From the IMG/VR virus record IMGVR_UViG_2706794673_000014: DNA of 39,783 nt; one strand, given 5' to 3'. The DNA comes from a virus. Its lineage: Duplodnaviria; Heunggongvirae; Uroviricota; Caudoviricetes. A model generated the notes under the pieces. The model did no database searches. It was not told the origin of the DNA and saw only the letters and a list, made by a program, of their open reading frames with translations. The position numbers and the translations under genes are program-made. Below, piece after piece: positions 2,577 to 39,589 of the stretch (within the stretch, counting starts at the first letter, position 1; the number at the start of each line of letters is the position of its first letter).

Positions 2577-2759
2577 TCAGGGCTGGGTCGGGTCTTTTGG
2601 GAGCGGAGTTACCTGCGCTGTTTTACTGAGTTTTTCAGCTGCTGCGTCCTCAATTTTGCGGCGAACATAATTTCTGATGGCCTTATAACCACCACTCACC
2701 AGATATAACGCACATACTGCCGTGCAGAAATACAATAAAATAAGCTGTAAAAATGTCAT
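2577..2759 (-). CDS. Small membrane protein, 60 aa, one predicted transmembrane helix
   Basis: ATG at 2757-2759 with GGGAGG upstream; hydrophobic N-terminus FLQLILLYFCTAVCALYLV followed by a basic stretch. Confidence 0.6.
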   Translation of the reverse strand: MTFLQLILLYFCTAVCALYLVSGGYKAIRNYVRRKIEDAAAEKLSKTAQVTPLPKDPTQP

Positions 2760-2855
2760 TATCCCTCCCAATTATTGACATGGTGTTGACACCGGTAATA
2801 TCTGTTAGGTAAAAAGGTGCACTGCATTTTTTGCTTTGGATATAACGATCTTTTT

Positions 2856-2897
2856 GCCGCCGGTTTCTTGTTTTCCCTTACCGGCGGCATTTTTTTA
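2856..2897 (+). terminator. GC-rich hairpin (GCCGCCGGT ... ACCGGCGGC) followed by T-run ATTTTTTTA; intrinsic-terminator-like on the plus strand
   Basis: 9-bp perfect stem, 15-nt loop, T-run 2889-2897; on the minus strand the hairpin is followed by A, so it is plus-strand specific. Confidence 0.45.
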
Positions 2898-2903
2898 TCC
2901 TGC

Positions 2904-4958
2904 TTACGCGTTATTCACTTCCACCACGATACTGTCAATCAGTACCGGGTAAGTCGCATTTTTAGTGATATCGGTCACGCGCAACTTGTCTGCCGTAAAC
3001 GTGCCGACCGGAGACTGCGACAGCATGAATGGTGTCCCGTCCTTACCATCAATGACCGGCGTCACCTCAATACTGTTGTTACCGGCAAAACGGAAGCCCA
3101 GCGTATGCCATTCGTTATTAAATGCGCCGAATGACCCCAGCTTCGTGTTCTGCGCCGTGTTTCCTTTGTGATACATCACGTTAAGGTCTGTGGCATCGCT
3201 CTGTACGTAGAACGATGCCAGCAGGTTATGACCGGCATTTCCTTCCAGAGTAACCCCTTGCGGCAGGGCAGAAACCGGCCAGTACAGCGCCAGTGCGTAC
3301 TGATTAGCCGTAAGCGCGCCATCGAGTTTAAAACGACAACTGACAAGACCACCTTTACCCAGCAGGTCCGCACCATTACCAGCATCATGCTCAAGGTACC
3401 AGGGGGCTCTTCCTGTTTCCTTGGTCAGTTTCATTGCCTTACCCCCGCTGGCTCCGGCATCATCCACGATTTGAGCCTTGCCACCTCCGGCAGCCCAACC
3501 CTGTGGTGTCAACCGTCCTTCAGACTCAGATGCCCGGTAAGCAAATAGCGTACTCATCGTCGTGGTGTCTGCGGGTGGCGTGGACGGTTTTGATGGTGTA
3601 TCAGGTGACGGCTTCTCATCCGGTGGTGTCACGGTCTGCCCACGCATCAGTTCAGCCGTGCGCCCTGCATGGAGCATAATAGCTGAGGCCAGACGGTCTG
3701 AAATGACGCCCCTGCGTGCCCATGAGCTGAAATGGCTGTCACGCTGTGTCGAAACAAAACTGCCCTGGGTTCGGGATGCTGCACCGTAATACCCGACAGC
3801 CACAATATCCGGGTCTTCCGCCGGAGCATTCGTTGGCGTGCTCTGTCCATTCTCATCCGTCAGGAACGGTACAAAGAAAATTTTCTGTGCTTCCTTGCCT
3901 TTGTAGCCACCGTATACTGCCTCATATTTATCGGTGCCAGCGTTTTTCCAGTAATACGTGGTATCACCGCAAATCCACGGCACCGTGGTGGCATTTCCAC
4001 TCACGCACTGCGCAGCAAGCGGAGCCAGGTCAGTTCTGAACTGCTGAACCATGGCCGTGAATAAACTATTATGCTGCTGGCTTCCTGAGGCAAGGTCTGC
4101 CTCTCCCTGCATCCAGACCACAGCCAGAAGTTTGTTTTTCGGGTTTTTCGCCAGCGCGACTTTGGTGCGGCTTACCAGGTCCTGATACAGAGGTTTACCG
4201 GCCCCCCAGCGTGAAGAATCAGCGGAAGCACCGCTGGCCTCACTGAATGAGCCGTCGGCTCCAGTGGTGAATGCTGACCCGCCACGACAACAGGGCACCA
4301 GAAGTATCCCGGCATTCTGTGGGATATAGGGAAGCAGTTTTTTGGCAATATGCAACCCCTGACCGACAGTCCCGTACTGGCCTTTTGCCAGATCAGCTTT
4401 CGGGTGGTTTATCCCGCTCATATCCTGAACATCATGCAGGCAGTGGTCTGCCGGAATGATGTCGTTGTATGTACACGACGTACCGTTGGGCGTTACCGTA
4501 CTGCGGCGTGCCAGTTGCTTAATGCGTGGGTCCGGGCGGTCAAACGAATCCGGTAACGGCAGCCCCTCGCCGTAGGCCATGCCATTTGACTGACCCGCGA
4601 GAATGACAACAAAGTAATATTCCGGCTCTGAACTGCTGCCATTCGTGCTACCGGAAGGCCCGGCGTTATCCGGTGCATTCCAGTCGGAGGGCGTGAGCGT
4701 TCCGGCCACGTCAGATGTGATTGGAATGATGCCAGTCACGCCTGAACTGGTGATTTCTGCACTGGGATTACCGGATACCGGCATTACCCATAATGGCTCT
4801 TTCGTGCTGAAGCGGATCACGCAGTCTGCGAAGGTGATCCCCCCTTTATTACCCGAAGGGCGGAAAGGGCTTTCAATAAATGCCACCGTGCCACCGGCAA
4901 CCTTGACTGAAAACTCTCCGGGCATGGCGGAGAGCATTTTCCACTTGGAGTCTGACAT
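2904..4958 (-). CDS. SGNH-hydrolase sialate O-acetylesterase-like protein (NanS/NanS-p-like), 684 aa, with Pro/Thr linker and C-terminal putative carbohydrate-binding domain
   Basis: Motif YYFVVILAGQSNGMAYGEGLPLPD and downstream blocks (NDIIPADHCLHDVQDMSG, LLVPCCRGGSAFT, HFSSWARRG) match recalled E. coli NanS (YjhS); linker TPPDEKPSPDTPSKPSTPP. Confidence 0.75.
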   Translation of the reverse strand: MSDSKWKMLSAMPGEFSVKVAGGTVAFIESPFRPSGNKGGITFADCVIRFSTKEPLWVMPVSGNPSAEITSSGVTGIIPITSDVAGTLTPSDWNAPDNAGPSGSTNGSSSEPEYYFVVILAGQSNGMAYGEGLPLPDSFDRPDPRIKQLARRSTVTPNGTSCTYNDIIPADHCLHDVQDMSGINHPKADLAKGQYGTVGQGLHIAKKLLPYIPQNAGILLVPCCRGGSAFTTGADGSFSEASGASADSSRWGAGKPLYQDLVSRTKVALAKNPKNKLLAVVWMQGEADLASGSQQHNSLFTAMVQQFRTDLAPLAAQCVSGNATTVPWICGDTTYYWKNAGTDKYEAVYGGYKGKEAQKIFFVPFLTDENGQSTPTNAPAEDPDIVAVGYYGAASRTQGSFVSTQRDSHFSSWARRGVISDRLASAIMLHAGRTAELMRGQTVTPPDEKPSPDTPSKPSTPPADTTTMSTLFAYRASESEGRLTPQGWAAGGGKAQIVDDAGASGGKAMKLTKETGRAPWYLEHDAGNGADLLGKGGLVSCRFKLDGALTANQYALALYWPVSALPQGVTLEGNAGHNLLASFYVQSDATDLNVMYHKGNTAQNTKLGSFGAFNNEWHTLGFRFAGNNSIEVTPVIDGKDGTPFMLSQSPVGTFTADKLRVTDITKNATYPVLIDSIVVEVNNA

Positions 4959-28389: not shown

Positions 28390-28720
28390 TCGTGGCCGCC
28401 TTGCTGATTTGTGAAATGAGTTGCAGGGTGCGTTGCTGGTTTGCCAGCACCAGACGGGCTTCGTCCCGTTCACGCACAAGCACATGATTATTGTCCTCAA
28501 GGCGCTGCGTCTTCTGGTGCATTCCCCATACCACGGCAGCCAGCACGCTCATCACCCCCAGCGCCGCCATACAGCCTCCGGCAATCAGGGCCGGTAAGGG
28601 ATTGTTCACCGCAGACACAGCACACCCCGCAGCAGCACAACGGCACACAGCAGCGCAATCATGAGCGGTCGCCAGAAGCGGTTCAGACTTTCGGCAAATC
28701 GTAACGACATAACCATTCAT
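28220..28720 (-). CDS. Putative i-spanin (transmembrane helix plus periplasmic coiled coil); start uncertain
   Basis: Hydrophobic LIAGGCMAALGVMSVLAAVVW followed by charged coiled-coil region; directly downstream of endolysin. Confidence 0.5.
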   Translation of the reverse strand: MNGYVVTICRKSEPLLATAHDCAAVCRCAAAGCAVSAVNNPLPALIAGGCMAALGVMSVLAAVVWGMHQKTQRLEDNNHVLVRERDEARLVLANQQRTLQLISQISKAATNEKQQNMQHSEEQQSIVRRSLATVPAAAVPVPDDVADRVRRAVCEIRAGEAGADPR

Positions 28721-29183
28721 CCGCCGAACGGCGGGCCTCAAGACCGGGGAGTTTTACCCCCTTTGAATAAATCCAGCGGATATACTGCTTACAGGACGCG
28801 GGCATCTGCCCGGCATTGATAAGGCGCAGGAGCGTGGAGTTGCGAAAGTTCGTTTCACCGGCCCAGAAAATCCAGGAGGCCAGCGCCACCGTCTGACCAC
28901 GGGTAAGCGGCACCTGAACATGACGATCGATAGCCGCAAAGGCCCATTTCATGTCCTTTTCCAGCAGCTCCAGACACTCTTCATCAGTTTTTGTCATCCC
29001 CGGTTTCACATCCGGGCCGGTATGGCCGTAACAGATGGTGGGGGTGCCGGTGGGATCAATGTACGTGGTGTTTTCTTTCCCTTCCCAGTAGCCGGTGTAG
29101 TGCGTGGCAATGGTGAACGTCCCGGCTCCGGCCAGAACAAGGGCAATCAGCTTTTTACGCAGGGGTGCGGGGAGTTTTGGCAT
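28683..29183 (-). CDS. SAR endolysin (T4-lysozyme-like muramidase with N-terminal signal-arrest-release domain)
   Basis: N-terminal weakly hydrophobic LIALVLAGAGTFTIA; catalytic E-D-T region YWEGKENTTYIDPTGTPTICYGHTG. Confidence 0.85.
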   Translation of the reverse strand: MPKLPAPLRKKLIALVLAGAGTFTIATHYTGYWEGKENTTYIDPTGTPTICYGHTGPDVKPGMTKTDEECLELLEKDMKWAFAAIDRHVQVPLTRGQTVALASWIFWAGETNFRNSTLLRLINAGQMPASCKQYIRWIYSKGVKLPGLEARRSADEWLCRYDLPKV

Positions 29184-29195
29184 TGTTACGCTGTC

Positions 29196-29699
29196 TCATG
29201 GTGTTCTCTGAGTCAGCGTAACCGTGAGGAAAAGGGGGCAGGATTTGCGGAATATCANNNNNNNNNNNNNNNNNNNNNNNNNNNNNNNNNNNNNNNNNNN
29301 NNNNNNNNNNNNNNNNNNNNNNNNNNNNNNNNNNNNNNNNNNNNNNNNNNNNNNNNNNNNNNNNNNNNNNNNNNNNNNNNNNNNNNNNNNNNNNNNNNNN
29401 NNNNNNNNNNNNNNNNNNNNNNNNNNNNNNNNNNNNNNNNNNNNNNNNNNNNNNNNNNNNNNNNNNNNNNNNNNNNNNNNNNNNNNNNNNNNNNNNNNNN
29501 NNNNNNNNNNNNNNNNNNNNNCCGCCTGAGCAGGTTCAATCCCCTGACGGTGCAGTTCAGCACTGATCACATCAACCAGGTCCCGCAGCGTGCCGGGCCA
29601 GTTCTTTTTCAGCTCATCATCAGGAATATCATCCAGACGGTCAATCAGCGCGTGCAGCTGTTCGCTGTCACCAAACATGCTCATCTGTGTTTCAGCCAT
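29196..29699 (-). CDS. Mor/C-family transcription activator; only the N-terminal ~59 aa (29521-29699) are readable, the rest lies in N-run 29258-29520
   Basis: N-terminus MAETQMSMFGDSEQLHALIDRLDDIPDDELKKNWPGTLRDLVDVISAELHRQGIEPAQA resembles recalled Mu Mor; position between gemA and lys. Confidence 0.6.
   Translation of the reverse strand: MAETQMSMFGDSEQLHALIDRLDDIPDDELKKNWPGTLRDLVDVISAELHRQGIEPAQAXXXXXXXXXXXXXXXXXXXXXXXXXXXXXXXXXXXXXXXXXXXXXXXXXXXXXXXXXXXXXXXXXXXXXXXXXXXXXXXXXXXXXXXXXIFRKSCPLFLTVTLTQRTP
29258..29520. other. Run of N (unsequenced or masked)
   Basis: Read directly. Confidence 1.
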
Positions 29700-29769
29700 A
29701 CCCGCCTCCGGTCATCATTACACAGGGCAAGTTTAAAATAAAAATCCCGCGCTGTGGCGGGATTTGGGG

Positions 29770-30282
29770 TTAACGGGGGAATGATTTTTCATACAGCCTG
29801 CAAACACGCTCATAACTCATCACTGCACGTTCCGACATATCCAGGGCTGCCAGCATTTTGCGGCGGTGCCAGCGTTTGAGACGCTCCAGCACATCAGAGG
29901 CCAGCGCGGGTTGTTGCTCCAGCCACTGCCAGTTAGCCACACCTTCGCCGTCGTTCTGCGCGGCCGTCTGCGATTTCACCCAGCGGTTAAGGGCCGTTTC
30001 CCCGCCATCAGAGATAAATCCCTGCCGGTGCATCACTTTCCAGATGGCGCGAATTTTGGCGGTCACCGTACCCGGTTTTAAGGCCCGGTTAACCGGCTTC
30101 TGACGCACTTTAAAACCGCGTTTTTTGAAAACATCCAGCACGCGGGATAACTCACCGGGTGACATATCACGGCAACTGGATTTGCCGGTGGCTGCCAGCA
30201 GCGCGGATGTATAGGTATCATGGTCAAGCTGTAGATCGCGTTTTGCGACATGTATTAAGGTAATCAGGGAAGCGCGATTCAT
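29770..30282 (-). CDS. gemA: GemA-like regulatory protein (Mu gp16 family)
   Basis: N-terminal LITLIHVAKRDLQLDHDTYTSALL motif typical of gp16/GemA; position upstream of mor. Confidence 0.8.
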   Translation of the reverse strand: MNRASLITLIHVAKRDLQLDHDTYTSALLAATGKSSCRDMSPGELSRVLDVFKKRGFKVRQKPVNRALKPGTVTAKIRAIWKVMHRQGFISDGGETALNRWVKSQTAAQNDGEGVANWQWLEQQPALASDVLERLKRWHRRKMLAALDMSERAVMSYERVCRLYEKSFPR

Positions 30283-30294
30283 TATCGTGGCTCC

Positions 30295-30324
30295 ATAAAA
30301 AATGGGCGGTGTTACCGCACCGCC
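30295..30324 (-). terminator. Hairpin (GGCGGTG/CACCGCC) followed on the minus strand by a U-run, 18 nt upstream of gemA start
   Basis: 7-bp stem at 30305-30311 and 30318-30324, 6-nt loop; plus-strand A-run 30297-30302. Confidence 0.4.
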
Positions 30325-30352
30325 ATGTCAATTAACATAAAAGGAAAAATCT

Positions 30353-30592
30353 ATGTCAGATATAAAAAATGCACTTGATGTTGCCGCATTCACAATGGCT
30401 GGAAATCTTATGGTAACCCTGTTCGATAAGGGGCTGATTTCCCGTGAGGAGGCAATACATATTATCAATCTCGCTCAAAAAAACTCTACCCCGGAAAATG
30501 CAGAAGATATCCAGGATGGCTCATATATTAATACCGACTGGCATTTCGACAATCTCCGGGCCTGTATGGGGATTACCGCTGAAAAAGATTAA
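30353..30592 (+). CDS. Hypothetical protein, 79 aa, opposite strand to the surrounding early operon, AT-rich
   Basis: ATG at 30353 with AAGGA 8 nt upstream; GC visibly lower than flanking phage DNA. Confidence 0.6.
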   Translation: MSDIKNALDVAAFTMAGNLMVTLFDKGLISREEAIHIINLAQKNSTPENAEDIQDGSYINTDWHFDNLRACMGITAEKD

Positions 30593-30860
30593 AAATTTTT
30601 GCATAATGTTCAGATGTAAGAATTGCTGAACCATCAACACCGAGCCTACGGCGAACGTATTCCTCGCGGGCTATTTTATTATCCAGAGATACAGCATCCT
30701 TAATCAGGTTAATCTCCCGCTCCATTATCAAAAGGGCTTCTCTGGCTGCAAGATTTTCTTTTATCGCATATTCGATAATGTCCCGCATACGTTCAAGCAT
30801 GCCGATTTTAGCCAGTTCTTCGTCGATAGATTTAGGCGCAAATTTGATTTCTTTTTCCAT
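30573..30860 (-). CDS. Hypothetical protein, 95 aa, predicted helical; convergent with 30353-30592 and overlapping it by 20 nt
   Basis: ATG at 30858-30860 with GAGGA upstream; AT-rich. Confidence 0.5.
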   Translation of the reverse strand: MEKEIKFAPKSIDEELAKIGMLERMRDIIEYAIKENLAAREALLIMEREINLIKDAVSLDNKIAREEYVRRRLGVDGSAILTSEHYAKIFNLFQR

Positions 30861-30861
30861 A

Positions 30862-31005
30862 TTATTCATCCTCACAATTTATACATGCAGTGTCGTCGCC
30901 CATATCGCAGTGGTTACATTTTATCTCACCACAATGTGGGCACTCTTTCAGATACTCCGGGTCCTCATTTCCACAGGTGGGACATTCAACAATTTGCTCA
31001 TCCAT
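30862..31005 (-). CDS. Small zinc-ribbon protein, 47 aa, four CxxC pairs
   Basis: Translation MDEQIVECPTCGNEDPEYLKECPHCGEIKCNHCDMGDDTACINCEDE derived by hand; below the ORF-track size cut-off. Confidence 0.5.
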   Translation of the reverse strand: MDEQIVECPTCGNEDPEYLKECPHCGEIKCNHCDMGDDTACINCEDE

Positions 31006-31330
31006 TATGTATCCCCTGTAATTCCGGCAAGGCCGAAAGATGGCACCAGTGCGTCACCTGTCCGTCCTCATCTTCAAGGCAGGCTCCGGTTTCTTCATCA
31101 ATAAAAAAGCCTTCATACCCCATATGGCCGATGCGCAGTTCCTGTTGGTCACCATACTGAACAATCAGCACGACAGCCTCCATATCAGGCGGAAATGCGT
31201 CATCCAGTGAATGCCAGGGATAACCGCGCAAATCCCCGAAATAAACGCCGGTCAGCGTTCCGCCACAGAGCGGCATTCCGGCGGCACACACAAGAGGTTC
31301 ATCTGATTCAACAAATAAGGTCGTTATCAT
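30998..31330 (-). CDS. Hypothetical early protein, 110 aa
   Basis: ORF in early operon; no motif recognised. Confidence 0.5.
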   Translation of the reverse strand: MITTLFVESDEPLVCAAGMPLCGGTLTGVYFGDLRGYPWHSLDDAFPPDMEAVVLIVQYGDQQELRIGHMGYEGFFIDEETGACLEDEDGQVTHWCHLSALPELQGIHNG

Positions 31331-31878
31331 GGCGTTAACTCCCGTAATACAGCGTCCTCGGCAGTCCGGCGACGGTAATAAACTGCGTGAGCAGAATGTT
31401 CAGATATTCCAAACTTTTCGCCAATTTCCCGGAATGACAGACGGCGTGGGTAATCGGAATCACGCAGCTCACGTATAAGACGTACATCATCATCAGATAT
31501 GCGCGTGCCGGGGCGTAACTCTCCGCACTTTGTTAATCCAGCACCAATCATTCCTGCCCGACATCTGACAGAATCTTTATTACGTCCGAGATATTCTCCC
31601 ATTTGCTGGCAGGTCATTGTTCTGGCATTTTTTCGAATAAACTTATCTTCATCAGGTGTAAATCTTGGGTGTTTATATTTCAGTAACTCCGGGTATGAAC
31701 TGCGCAATACACCAGTCCGGTTATATACAGCCCAGACAGTTCTTTTTATTCTGGCAGCAATATCCTTAACCGGGGTGGATGAATAAAGCGCAATCAGCAG
31801 CGCATCTTCTTCAGGTGTCCACGGACGGACATGAGCGGGGGCGCGACCTTTTAGTCCCATGGGTTGTAATTTCATCAT
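31327..31878 (-). CDS. Hypothetical DNA-binding protein with three tandem helix-turn-helix-like repeats (GcrA/SANT-like)
   Basis: Repeats WTPEEDALLIALY..., FTPDEDKFIRKNA..., ISDDDVRLIRELR... each followed by a putative recognition helix. Confidence 0.55.
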   Translation of the reverse strand: MMKLQPMGLKGRAPAHVRPWTPEEDALLIALYSSTPVKDIAARIKRTVWAVYNRTGVLRSSYPELLKYKHPRFTPDEDKFIRKNARTMTCQQMGEYLGRNKDSVRCRAGMIGAGLTKCGELRPGTRISDDDVRLIRELRDSDYPRRLSFREIGEKFGISEHSAHAVYYRRRTAEDAVLRELTP

Positions 31879-33915: not shown

Positions 33916-34473
33916 TTACCCCTGTTGATTAAATTCATTACCGTTAATAACCCCGGAAGCCATGCCTCTGTCTTTCATGAATGCACTGGCTTNNNNNNNN
34001 NNNNNNNNNNNNNNNNNNNNNNNNNNNNNNNNNNNNNNNNNNNNNNNNNNNNNNNNNNNNNNNNNNNNNNNNNNNNNNNNNNNNNNNNNNNNNNNNNNNN
34101 NNNNNNNNNNNNNNNNNNNNNNNNNNNNNNNNNNNNNNNNNNNNNNNNNNNNNNNNNNNNNNNNNNNNNNNNNNNNNNNNNNNNNNNNNNNNNNNNNNNN
34201 NNNNNNNNNNNNNNNNNNNNNNNNNNNNNNNNNNNNNNNNNNNNNNNNNAACCGAATCATGGCATTAAAGGCTTCTTCCTCCGTCACCGCTTCCGGTATC
34301 CCCGGAACCAGTAACTGCTCCTGTTCATCACGTCCATGACGCGCCATAACCTCAATCACATGCCGTACCGTGGCAGGCTTTCCGGCAACTATCGGCAATG
34401 CACCTTCCGGCAGGACGTAACCAAACTCAATAAGACCACTCGACCACGCCCATGCAATGAGATTTTTTTTCAC
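33916..34473 (-). CDS. Hypothetical early protein, interrupted by N-run 33993-34249
   Basis: N-terminal 74 aa readable; remainder within gap. Confidence 0.45.
   Translation of the reverse strand: MKKNLIAWAWSSGLIEFGYVLPEGALPIVAGKPATVRHVIEVMARHGRDEQEQLLVPGIPEAVTEEEAFNAMIRXXXXXXXXXXXXXXXXXXXXXXXXXXXXXXXXXXXXXXXXXXXXXXXXXXXXXXXXXXXXXXXXXXXXXXXXXXXXXXXXXXXXXXXASAFMKDRGMASGVINGNEFNQQG
33993..34249. other. Run of N (unsequenced or masked)
   Basis: Read directly. Confidence 1.
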
Positions 34474-38486: not shown

Positions 38487-39032
38487 ATGAACAAGCAAAC
38501 AACAACATCTCTTTCTTTTCCTGGTGGTAGAAAAGAAAGCATTGCTGAGCGTCTGAAAAGGCTGATTGGCTCCCGCAGCGTCAGAGCTGCAGCAAGAGAT
38601 TGGGGGCTTTCATTTTCAACACTAAACAATTATCTGTCTCGTGGCACTGAGCCATCCTTAAGTGTCGCCCTTCAGATTGCGTCTATCGAAGGAGTAAGTG
38701 TTGAGTGGCTATGTGGATTCAGTGATGCATCACAAGTGAATCGGTGTGAGATCAAGGAAAATCAAGATGAAAGCAAGAAGATAATTATGACGATTATCAG
38801 CGCACTTGATGAAAAAGACTTAGAGCAGCTATCGAAAAATTTGGTTCTGAATGGAGCCAAGTACTTAGCTCGGTTGTTAGAGCCTGAAAATCAAGATCTA
38901 ATCCGCTTAGAAGGAAGGAAAAGAATAGCTGCATTACAGCTTGAAGGTATGTCTGACGAACGCGTCAGAGAGATTTTGGAAGAAACTGAGAGAAGTCGCA
39001 AATCTAACGCGGTAGAACCAAAAGCGGGTTAA
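38487..39032 (+). CDS. Prophage repressor (HTH DNA-binding protein, functional analogue of Mu c)
   Basis: Divergent from ner, reads toward the phage end as Mu c does; HTH-like AAARDWGLSFSTLNNYLSRGTEPSLSVALQIA; AT-rich. Confidence 0.75.
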   Translation: MNKQTTTSLSFPGGRKESIAERLKRLIGSRSVRAAARDWGLSFSTLNNYLSRGTEPSLSVALQIASIEGVSVEWLCGFSDASQVNRCEIKENQDESKKIIMTIISALDEKDLEQLSKNLVLNGAKYLARLLEPENQDLIRLEGRKRIAALQLEGMSDERVREILEETERSRKSNAVEPKAG

Positions 39033-39105: not shown

Positions 39106-39286
39106 AGTATCAAATGAGTTGCCGATTTTATAATAAATGACTAATTATTGCACAATCGGTATCAAATAGACCTTATCCGCACATCTAGCCATCACCTGTT
39201 TTATTTCAGTATCTTACAGGTGATTTCACCTCCTTTCACTAAACCCCTTGTCGGTATCAAATGATTCACCTGGTTATATGTCGCCA
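39106..39286. repeat. Left-end (attL-like) terminal repeat region: one GGTATCAAA motif at the terminus (39253-39261), two more 95 and 147 bp inward (39158-39166, 39106-39114)
   Basis: Inverted copies of the right-end motif; spacing (one terminal site, gap, two internal) matches Mu attL L1-L3. Confidence 0.7.
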
Positions 39287-39589
39287 GTCGATACCTTCCA
39301 GCAGCATCGCCAGCTGCGCCTGTGTAAGGAACACTTTGCCATCACGGGCTGACGGCCAGGCGAAGCGCCCACGCTCCAGCCGTTTGGTCAGGAGGCACAG
39401 TCCGTCACTGGTGGACCACAGCAGTTTAACCTGACTGCCGCTGCGGCCCCGGAAAATGAAAACATGGCCGGACATGGGATCGTCTTTCAGCGCCGTCTGT
39501 ACTTTCGCAGCCAGGCCGTTGAAGCCATTTCTCATATCGGTGATACCGGCAACCAGCCAAATTTTGATCCCGGAAGGTAACGGGATCAT
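39266..39589 (-). CDS. tnpB: IS66-family TnpB (Orf2); C-terminus may be altered by the prophage junction
   Basis: MIPLPSGIKIWLVAGITDMRNGFNGLAAKVQ...LWSTSDGLCLLTKRLERGRFAWP typical IS66 Orf2; ATGA overlap with upstream orf at 39586-39589. Confidence 0.9.
   Translation of the reverse strand: MIPLPSGIKIWLVAGITDMRNGFNGLAAKVQTALKDDPMSGHVFIFRGRSGSQVKLLWSTSDGLCLLTKRLERGRFAWPSARDGKVFLTQAQLAMLLEGIDWRHITR

Follow-up and report, generated by a model that had tools for sequence, protein, structure and literature searches.

The window analysed here, the whole 39,783 nucleotides (nt) of the IMG/VR virus record IMGVR_UViG_2706794673_000014, is a Mu-like prophage whose early operon is transcribed on the minus strand. 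Directly upstream of gemA, in the sense of early transcription, lies a short AT-rich module (30283-31005) made up of two small early-strand genes, a third small gene in the opposite orientation and a hairpin. DNA and protein comparisons establish the homology of the three genes to gp13, gp14 and gp15 of phage Mu, and by this evidence the segment is shown to be the form that the gp13-gp14-gp15 part of the semi-essential early region takes in this prophage. The elements of the module are as follows (aa, amino acids):

30302..31014, no strand: mosaic cassette (hairpin plus gp15-, gp14- and gp13-like genes), without similarity to the otherwise near-identical phage L048
30297..30324, minus strand: intrinsic-terminator-like RNA hairpin; stem of 30318-30324 with 30305-30311, 6-nt loop, U6 at 30297-30302
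30341..30345, plus strand: Shine-Dalgarno sequence (AAGGA) serving the 79-aa gene, spaced 7 nt from its ATG
30353..30592, plus strand: 79-aa gene of the Mu gp15 family (phrog_32893), directed against the early operon; acidic all-helical protein
30469..30475, plus strand: A7 homopolymer inside the 79-aa gene
30573..30592, no strand: 20-nt overlap of the convergent 3' ends, from the coordinates of the open reading frames (ORFs)
30573..30860, minus strand: 95-aa Mu gp14 homologue (phrog_6075), all-helical; 49% identity, E = 1e-30
30862..31005, minus strand: 47-aa eight-cysteine zinc-ribbon protein, Mu gp13 homologue (phrog_5584); 36/41 identical

The original prediction had placed here a 79-aa plus-strand ORF with a ribosome-binding site, converging with 20 nt of 3' overlap on a 95-aa minus-strand gene, and a 47-aa ORF with eight cysteines; all three lie where it put them, and the overlap is exact. 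Its claim of a lower GC content is borne out as well, with 0.418 over the module against 0.52-0.56 overall in the flanking genes (gp11-like 0.522, mor 0.533, A 0.542, gemA 0.546), and a low GC recurs in every lineage, Mu included. The 79-aa gene is, as had been proposed, the sole credible opposite-strand gene between ner and mor: the other plus-strand ORFs of the early operon shadow known genes and have no PHROG match.

In Mu, the corresponding segment consists of gp13 (60 aa, zinc ribbon), gp14 (100 aa) and the opposite-strand gp15 (88 aa), followed by gemA, and the 3' ends of gp14 and gp15 overlap by 62 nt. Gene order and orientation match between the window, Mu, SfMu and E. coli prophages, and the three genes also occur in D108 and in Klebsiella Mu-like prophages. 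Since Mu, SfMu and D108 carry the homologues in equal order and orientation, the module is no new insertion, and the arrangement is ancestral to Muvirus-type phages and old within the group. Of the inserted module that was originally predicted, the discrete, AT-rich and swappable unit stands (the 30302-31014 exchanged in L048 approximate 30283-31005), and the novelty relative to Mu does not. The original prediction had also named, as evidence that would count against it, the presence of the same genes in all Mu-like phages with known early functions. Homologues do share order and orientation with Mu; they are not found in all Mu-like phages, and none has a known function.

A recent foreign insertion peculiar to this prophage, a moron in the classic sense, would explain the dip in GC, the sharp mosaic boundaries and the opposite orientation of one gene. 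We regard it as highly improbable, given that a homologous arrangement with an equal GC dip is present in Mu, SfMu, D108 and the Klebsiella and E. coli Mu-like prophages, that the searches made found no homologues outside Mu-like early regions, and that neither flanking direct or inverted repeats pointing to cassette transposition nor an own plus-strand promoter or terminator were found. On these comparisons, both "peculiar" and "recent" are already refuted. Two genes adjoining the module at 30998-31878 are extra relative to Mu, and by the same kind of comparison these are the real insertions. They separate the gp13-like gene from the gp12-like gene, so that gp13 follows a 110-aa gene in the window and gp12 in Mu. 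The 183-aa product is SANT/Myb-like and belongs to phrog_323 ("transcriptional regulator, D5-like"), and the 110-aa product belongs to phrog_6925, with a weak match to DUF551.

The plus-strand gene begins with ATG, and its length is not significant by itself at the GC content of the module: p is ~0.008 for any one start, and a sequence of 40 kb offers many. The case for this gene therefore rests on conservation. Its product defines phrog_32893 (E = 1e-45), which is also matched by Mu gp15 at 6e-4. A hidden Markov model (HMM) built from window-type homologues recovers Mu gp15 at 4e-5, SfMu gp16 at 3e-5, an unannotated ORF of D108 at 1e-10 and an E. coli prophage variant (L019) at 9e-11. Pairwise BLASTP between the 79-aa protein and Mu gp15 is not significant, and the homology is seen only by profiles; the relationship is therefore a distant one. 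Word-indexed protein searches proved too narrow, returning 8-10 close matches and missing even Mu gp14, and exhaustive HMMER searches over 1.8 billion representatives were used for the family. The homologues span 67-85 aa and, once aligned as a family, share 31-44% identity with the window protein, with motifs kept at both ends (FDxAAFTLAGNLL..L..KGxLSxEEA and DWHLDNL), and the protein is conserved over its full length in distant lineages whose DNA no longer aligns. A scan of a collection of genome contigs with the family alignment found nothing.

In every genomic context retrieved, whether from E. coli, Klebsiella or metagenomic Mu-like elements, the gp15-family gene is directed against the early operon, and it mostly lies immediately upstream of gemA. 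Differences concentrate in third codon positions, the ratio of nonsynonymous to synonymous substitution rates (dN/dS) of the frame is 0.23-0.40, and a comparable AGGA or GGAG Shine-Dalgarno element precedes the start in the homologues. Together, the element and the dN/dS values provide indirect evidence that the product is made. No antisense frame is open across all members, such frames being stop-free in isolated members only. The gene is also called by PGAP, as WP_001280088.1, in an E. coli prophage that is identical here, and the literature yielded no transcript or proteomic data for the family. E. coli JE86-ST05 (NZ_AP022815) carries this prophage and matches the window at 100% identity over the region.

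The reference records of Mu disagree on this gene. RefSeq NC_000929 (L001, 7896-8162) keeps the opposite-strand gp15; the updated GenBank record AF083977 (L004, 7960-8127) has a same-strand 55-aa "Mu_54" in its place. The record of D108 has no gene annotated at this position. We observe in D108 (NC_013594, locus 2641-3000, plus strand of the locus) an unannotated gp15-family ORF between gene 14 and gemA, starting with MAEQEQHTVS... and bearing an acidic N-terminal extension of about 30 aa. That the plus-strand ORF is no gene at all, and the interval a non-coding spacer or the site of a same-strand peptide, could draw on these annotations, on the insignificant length of the ORF, on the failure to find a promoter and on the existence of frameshifted copies. 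This reading is barely credible in view of the full-length conservation in lineages without DNA alignment, the dN/dS values with their third-position excess and the Shine-Dalgarno elements of the homologues; moreover, the frame equivalent to Mu_54 is interrupted by 2-6 stops both in the window and, with one exception, in the homologues examined, and Mu_54 has no significant PHROG match. The comparative data have already largely refuted it, and they favour gp15 over Mu_54 and the 79-aa ORF as a real conserved gene.

Some database copies (P0005, P0007-P0010) are frameshifted near residue 44 and carry an altered C-terminus, and others are truncated at the N-terminus. The +1 frame of the 79-aa gene is open for 61 codons (30444-30629, plus strand) and is the frame of the shifted variants, which would fit deletion of one A from the A7 run at 30469-30475. 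Such copies could come from a gene that is dispensable, or from sequencing errors in the homopolymer. The heptamer A AAA AAC at the A7 run looks slippery; programmed frameshifting there was nevertheless considered and rejected, since the alternative open frame is +1 rather than -1 and conservation favours the C-terminus read in the zero frame.

The gp14-like gene lies on the early strand between the gp13-like gene and gemA, as in Mu, and besides its BLASTP match to Mu gp14 it matches phrog_6075 at E = 5e-44. A GTG at 30875 would extend the protein to 100 aa; the alignment with Mu gp14 backs the 95-aa ATG start. The gp13-like protein is 88% identical to Mu gp13 over 41 aa (BLASTP E = 2e-27), lacks the first 19 residues of the Mu protein and carries its eight cysteines as four CxxC pairs, with matches to Pfam zinc-ribbon models below cut-offs only. 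In some relatives (L029, 4510-5205), gp12 and the gp13 zinc ribbon form a single 231-aa protein (phrog_6418) with the ribbon at its C-terminal end, and gp12 and gp13 overlap by 14 nt in Mu and others (4510-4692 and 4679-5209 in L028). The two genes may on this evidence be linked in function or related by a frameshift.

The gp14 and gp15 families are tightly associated. Among all fetched loci, searched with a gp14 HMM, they co-occur in 57, corresponding to 28 unique pairs, and the pairs are convergent with an overlap of 4-98 nt, the sole exception being one locus (L081) with a truncated gp15 ORF. The pair is also present in two distant loci (L031 and L034) in which a gene other than gemA comes next in the early direction. 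Within the fetched loci, gp15-family genes are always paired convergently with a gp14-family gene, an association shown here for the first time. The pair itself is found in only 13 of the 80 GemA-anchored IMG/VR loci, which are those fetched out of 451 GemA contigs confirmed by tblastn. In the two distant loci, we also observe an 8-bp inverted repeat whose 3' arm contains the Shine-Dalgarno sequence of the backward gene, CCTGTTAG...CTAACAGG at ~3960-4000 of L031 and TTGTTAGA...TCTAACAA at ~1610-1650 of L034 (both on the plus strand of the locus). This hints at translational control of the backward gene; the repeat is not seen in the window.

Comparison with the IMG/VR contig L048 delimits the module as a unit of exchange. 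On the gemA side the two sequences are 99.6% identical over window positions 30301..29600, and on the other side they are 95.8% identical over 31493..31015, with the boundaries of the swap at 30301/30302 and 31014/31015. In place of window positions 30302-31014, L048 has 1.1 kb of non-homologous DNA of matching layout: two early-strand genes of 130 aa and 102 aa (phrog_1988) and a convergent opposite-strand gene of 136 aa (phrog_585, with a sub-threshold DUF2513 match), together with a hairpin of its own. This phrog_1988 plus DUF2513-like module occupies the slot in the IMG/VR loci L048, L073, L083 and L118, in most of them with a GC-rich hairpin 19-20 nt before gemA. Profile comparison of gp13, gp14 and gp15 with the alternative module detects no homology (hhalign probability below 5%); the likeness is one of slot, layout and the occasional loss of the opposite-strand gene. 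Yersinia phage vB_YpM_3 is the one phage in which gp14 stands alone, the body of gp15 being cleanly absent between two TGAT microhomologies with the hairpin kept, and L050 mirrors this loss, lacking only the opposite-strand gene of the alternative module. Neither module nor hairpin is present in 27 of 48 non-redundant GemA loci. In one E. coli genome (H21, NZ_CP027586 3282932-3284431), a copy of IS1A has inserted into the homologous gp13-gp15 segment, which is further evidence that a prophage can dispense with the module. As judged from these alignments, the module is shown to be a self-contained mosaic accessory unit, dispensable and exchangeable among Mu-like phages, and the slot upstream of gemA is shown to be an exchange hotspot with at least two non-homologous occupants. 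The opposite-strand moron of the original prediction thus survives as a real gene that can be lost; its own promoter and terminator were not found.

The hairpin belongs to the early strand. In the window it has a 7-bp stem with six G-C pairs and ends 22 nt before the gemA ATG, and folding of its 91-nt context gives z = -3.2. The run of T follows the stem on the minus strand, and the element is therefore terminator-like for the early transcript and not for the plus-strand gene. A GC-rich stem-loop lies 16-22 nt upstream of the start codon of the next early gene in all gp14/gp15 lineages, while its stem varies from lineage to lineage (GGCGGTG/CACCGCC, GGCGGCT/AGCCGCC, AGGCCGCGC/GCGTGGCCT, TGGTGGCGG/CCGCCGCCA, CGGGCGGCGT/ATGCCGCCTG). 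In an alignment of 15 sequences, 96% of cells pair, compensatory changes affect 3 of the 7 pairs, and the covariation score of 0.257 compares with 0.116 in shuffles (0/500 reach it) and lies above all slid controls. Where a pair departs from Watson-Crick, it reads as G.U on the early strand and would be A.C on the opposite one, and the tails are T-rich; because of this asymmetry and these tails, the hairpin is read as an RNA element of the early transcript. Among the same 48 GemA loci, 16 of the 18 that have an opposite-strand gene carry the hairpin, against 3 of the 30 that have none (Fisher p = 5e-8). The hairpin with a U-run that had been predicted between the module and gemA is therefore present at 30297-30324, as an early-strand element that travels with the module and not as a separator of the module from gemA. 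With a GC-rich stem-loop followed by U6 on the transcribed strand, the sequence in the window has the form of a canonical Rho-independent terminator, and termination is predicted. An Rfam search found nothing inside the module.

The position of gp15 allows for another role, that of a divergently transcribed regulator of the gemA-mor "semi-early" unit that times Mor and uses the inverted repeat as its operator. In most lineages the gp15 start is 70-75 nt from the gemA start, back to back, exactly in this interval the Mu record annotates a semi-early promoter, and the alternative occupant is DUF2513-like (winged-helix-like). The gp15 family, on the other hand, is acidic (pI 4.3-5.8) and without a helix-turn-helix match, a 99.6% identical gemA occurs with a wholly different module, vB_YpM_3 and L050 do without the opposite-strand gene, and the next gene is not gemA in L031 and L034. 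A dedicated gemA regulator is for these reasons quite improbable. The inverted repeat as an operator was rejected as well: its G.U pairs fall on one strand only, its tails are rich in U and it keeps a constant spacing from the start codon that follows, features that fit an RNA hairpin and not a DNA operator.

The layout of the convergent pair has consequences for its transcription. With no gap between the two converging genes, and with the hairpin situated past the antisense copy of gp15, a transcript from the early promoter Pe must cross all of gp15. It would run through gp14, continue antisense over the whole of gp15 and proceed up to the hairpin. Given this obligatory antisense read-through, gp14 and gp15 are predicted to be expressed in alternation. 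The gp15 gene, which shares its orientation and AT-richness with the repressor gene c, would be made only with the early operon silent, as in the lysogen. Once the prophage is induced, gp14 would be produced, and transcriptional interference or antisense pairing would silence gp15; the hairpin would close an untranslated stretch of about 250 nt and might attenuate or punctuate transcription before gemA-mor. We consider it somewhat more probable than its negation that the locus is, as a whole, an exchangeable Mu gp13-gp15 accessory module with alternating expression of gp15 in the lysogen and gp14 in lytic growth.

Several observations weigh against this interpretation. No promoter was found for the plus-strand gene: neither a consensus scan nor a position weight matrix revealed, over 14 lineages, a sigma-70 promoter that keeps its position ahead of the backward gene or of gemA, and the plus-strand promoter-like matches are weak and unconserved, these scans leaving room for a non-canonical promoter. 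The scan of the window likewise found no intrinsic terminator for a plus-strand transcript. Expression of the plus-strand gene, and lysogen-specific expression above all, is accordingly something we purely infer. The "semi-early promoter" of AF083977 (8151-8217) lies over the equivalent region and is left unexplained by the alternation model. The tail of the hairpin is weakly U-rich in most lineages (CCCUUUCC in Mu), and the element may serve RNA stability or processing rather than termination. The co-occurrence of gp14 and gp15 could reflect mere physical overlap and linkage rather than functional pairing, and the frameshifted or truncated copies of gp15 would also fit a decaying gene.

The proteins themselves give few indications of function. 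AlphaFold (AF2) models the 79-aa protein as four helices, with a mean confidence (pLDDT) of 79, and the gp14-like protein as all-helical with a 35-residue central helix (pLDDT 87). Members of the gp15 family have net charges of -1 to -15 along with their low pI; their first helix is hydrophobic but short of a membrane span, the maximum hydropathy being borderline and not transmembrane. The gp13-like protein is very acidic. Pfam, NCBIfam and PADLOC contain no significant match that would assign a function to any of the three window proteins, and none of these matches a curated defence model or a solved defence or anti-defence inhibitor fold. The host-takeover or anti-defence function that the original prediction had put forward as a candidate is accordingly unsupported. 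The fold search returned no significant match (the top TM-score among BFVD matches being the Mu left-end ORF Q38493, TMq 0.60, not significant), and a profile search of PDB sequences brought up Hsp70 lids alone, none of them significant (E at least 0.1). None of the three small, acidic proteins bears the signature of an enzyme or of a DNA-binding protein, which makes it probable that they work through contacts with other proteins. A literature search on the function or transcription of Mu gp13, gp14 and gp15 found nothing relevant; published work leaves the Mu semi-essential region largely uncharacterised and reports a promoter of the gem operon.

A more specific proposal would make the module a defence-plus-antidote pair, with gp15 a prophage exclusion or defence factor, or one incompatible with lysis, gp14 a neutraliser or partner that spares the phage's own lytic growth, and the slot a hotspot for such pairs. 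That gp14 and gp15 strictly go together in early regions of widely differing make-up agrees with it, as does the second, unrelated convergent pair (phrog_1988 with the DUF2513-like gene). In vB_YpM_3 and L050 it is the opposite-strand member that was lost and the early-strand member that was kept, which is expected if the "antidote" is harmless alone, and the resemblance of gp15 to gene c in orientation and AT-richness points in the same direction. The transposable phage Fc02 has exclusion genes in the opposite orientation that are expressed in the lysogen (PMC9936078); these genes are unrelated and lie at another locus. No PADLOC defence model matched, toxin-like, membrane or nuclease features were not found beyond the borderline hydropathy of gp15, and no promoter was found for the latter. 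On balance we think a defence pair rather unlikely, and the exchangeable module with alternating expression remains our preferred reading.

The gp13-gp15 gene set of Mu is already catalogued, and the window is a divergent member of it. Mu gp13 and gp14 are clear orthologues of the window genes, alike in order, strand and adjacency. Mu gp15 (Mup15, NP_050619; phrog_8747) and its D108 counterpart are, like the window gene, small opposite-strand proteins encoded immediately upstream of gemA with the 3' end over gp14. By HMM, Mu gp15 and the window protein share an N-terminal helix-turn-helix-like core, D-V-A-x-[FY]...L...K-[GA]-x-I-[ST]-x-E-E, and both are all-helical; they differ in sequence (~22% identity), in length (79 aa in the window, 88 aa in Mu), in overlap (20 and 62 nt) and in PHROG (32893 and 8747). 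The C-terminal motif is DWHxDNL in the window type and LFNKLW in the D108 type, and neither is found in Mu gp15.

A moron, in the concept associated with Juhala and Hendrix, is an additional gene of a temperate phage that is expressed autonomously, having a promoter and a terminator to itself, and that deviates in GC content. The window module resembles morons in its deviant GC, its presence or absence among close relatives, its sharp boundaries and its dispensability. It differs from them in that no promoter or terminator is identifiable for the opposite-strand gene, that two of its genes belong to the early operon, and that it is ancient and widespread in the group and not sporadic. Switches based on convergent transcription include the excludons of Listeria and the pR/pL interference of coliphage 186. 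The gp14/gp15 pair shares with these the convergent units, the necessarily full overlap of transcripts and the long antisense read-through of a strong operon over the opposite gene, a likeness that is architectural only. Type II toxin-antitoxin pairs differ from the window pair, which is convergent and not co-directional and has no Pfam or NCBIfam toxin or antitoxin match.

The surroundings of the module in the window include the following genes:

38487-39032, plus strand: repressor gene c, outside the early operon, oriented like the 79-aa gene
early operon of the window, minus strand: ner, A, B, kil, gam, gp11-like, gp12-like
29770-30282, minus strand: gemA
29196-29699, minus strand: mor
28683-29183, minus strand: lysozyme gene

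Runs of N (1565 in total), at 29255-29530 and ~33990-34230, mask part of mor and part of the gene between gam and kil, so that these two are not fully readable. Genes gemA and mor, which overlap in Mu, are separated by a gap of 70 nt in the window, and this gap holds a second terminator-like hairpin (29742-29765, minus strand) with a 9-bp stem and a T-rich tail, over which an Rfam Trp_leader match is sub-threshold (E = 0.24). The lysozyme gene directly follows mor (28683-29699), with no Mu middle operon (gp18-20 and the late activator C) between them, and a single activator of the Mor/C family appears to be present at the mor position in this phage type. Just past the repressor end of the prophage lies a transposase fragment (39266-39589, minus strand) that matches only the C-terminal part of the phrog_623 profile.

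Mu is a textbook phage, yet its genes between gam and gemA are unassigned, and its reference records disagree on gp15. The present analysis adds support for gp15 as a gene, a previously unannotated member in D108, the pairing of gp14 and gp15 with a covarying cassette-borne hairpin, and the exchange hotspot upstream of gemA. The natural deletions provide a handle on a pair of genes that may be exclusive to lysogeny and lysis, and on read-through into the gene for the Mor activator. More speculatively, and with less confidence than even the defence pair commands, the gp14/gp15 and phrog_1988/DUF2513-like modules might both be unrecognised "tail-to-tail switch cassettes" upstream of gemA, in which a lysogen-expressed accessory backward gene (for exclusion, defence or host modulation) and a lytic forward counterpart would be made mutually exclusive by convergent transcription, with a terminator gating Mor. 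Should the backward gene turn out to be expressed by the prophage for exclusion or host modulation, this slot would be a useful source of further such factors.

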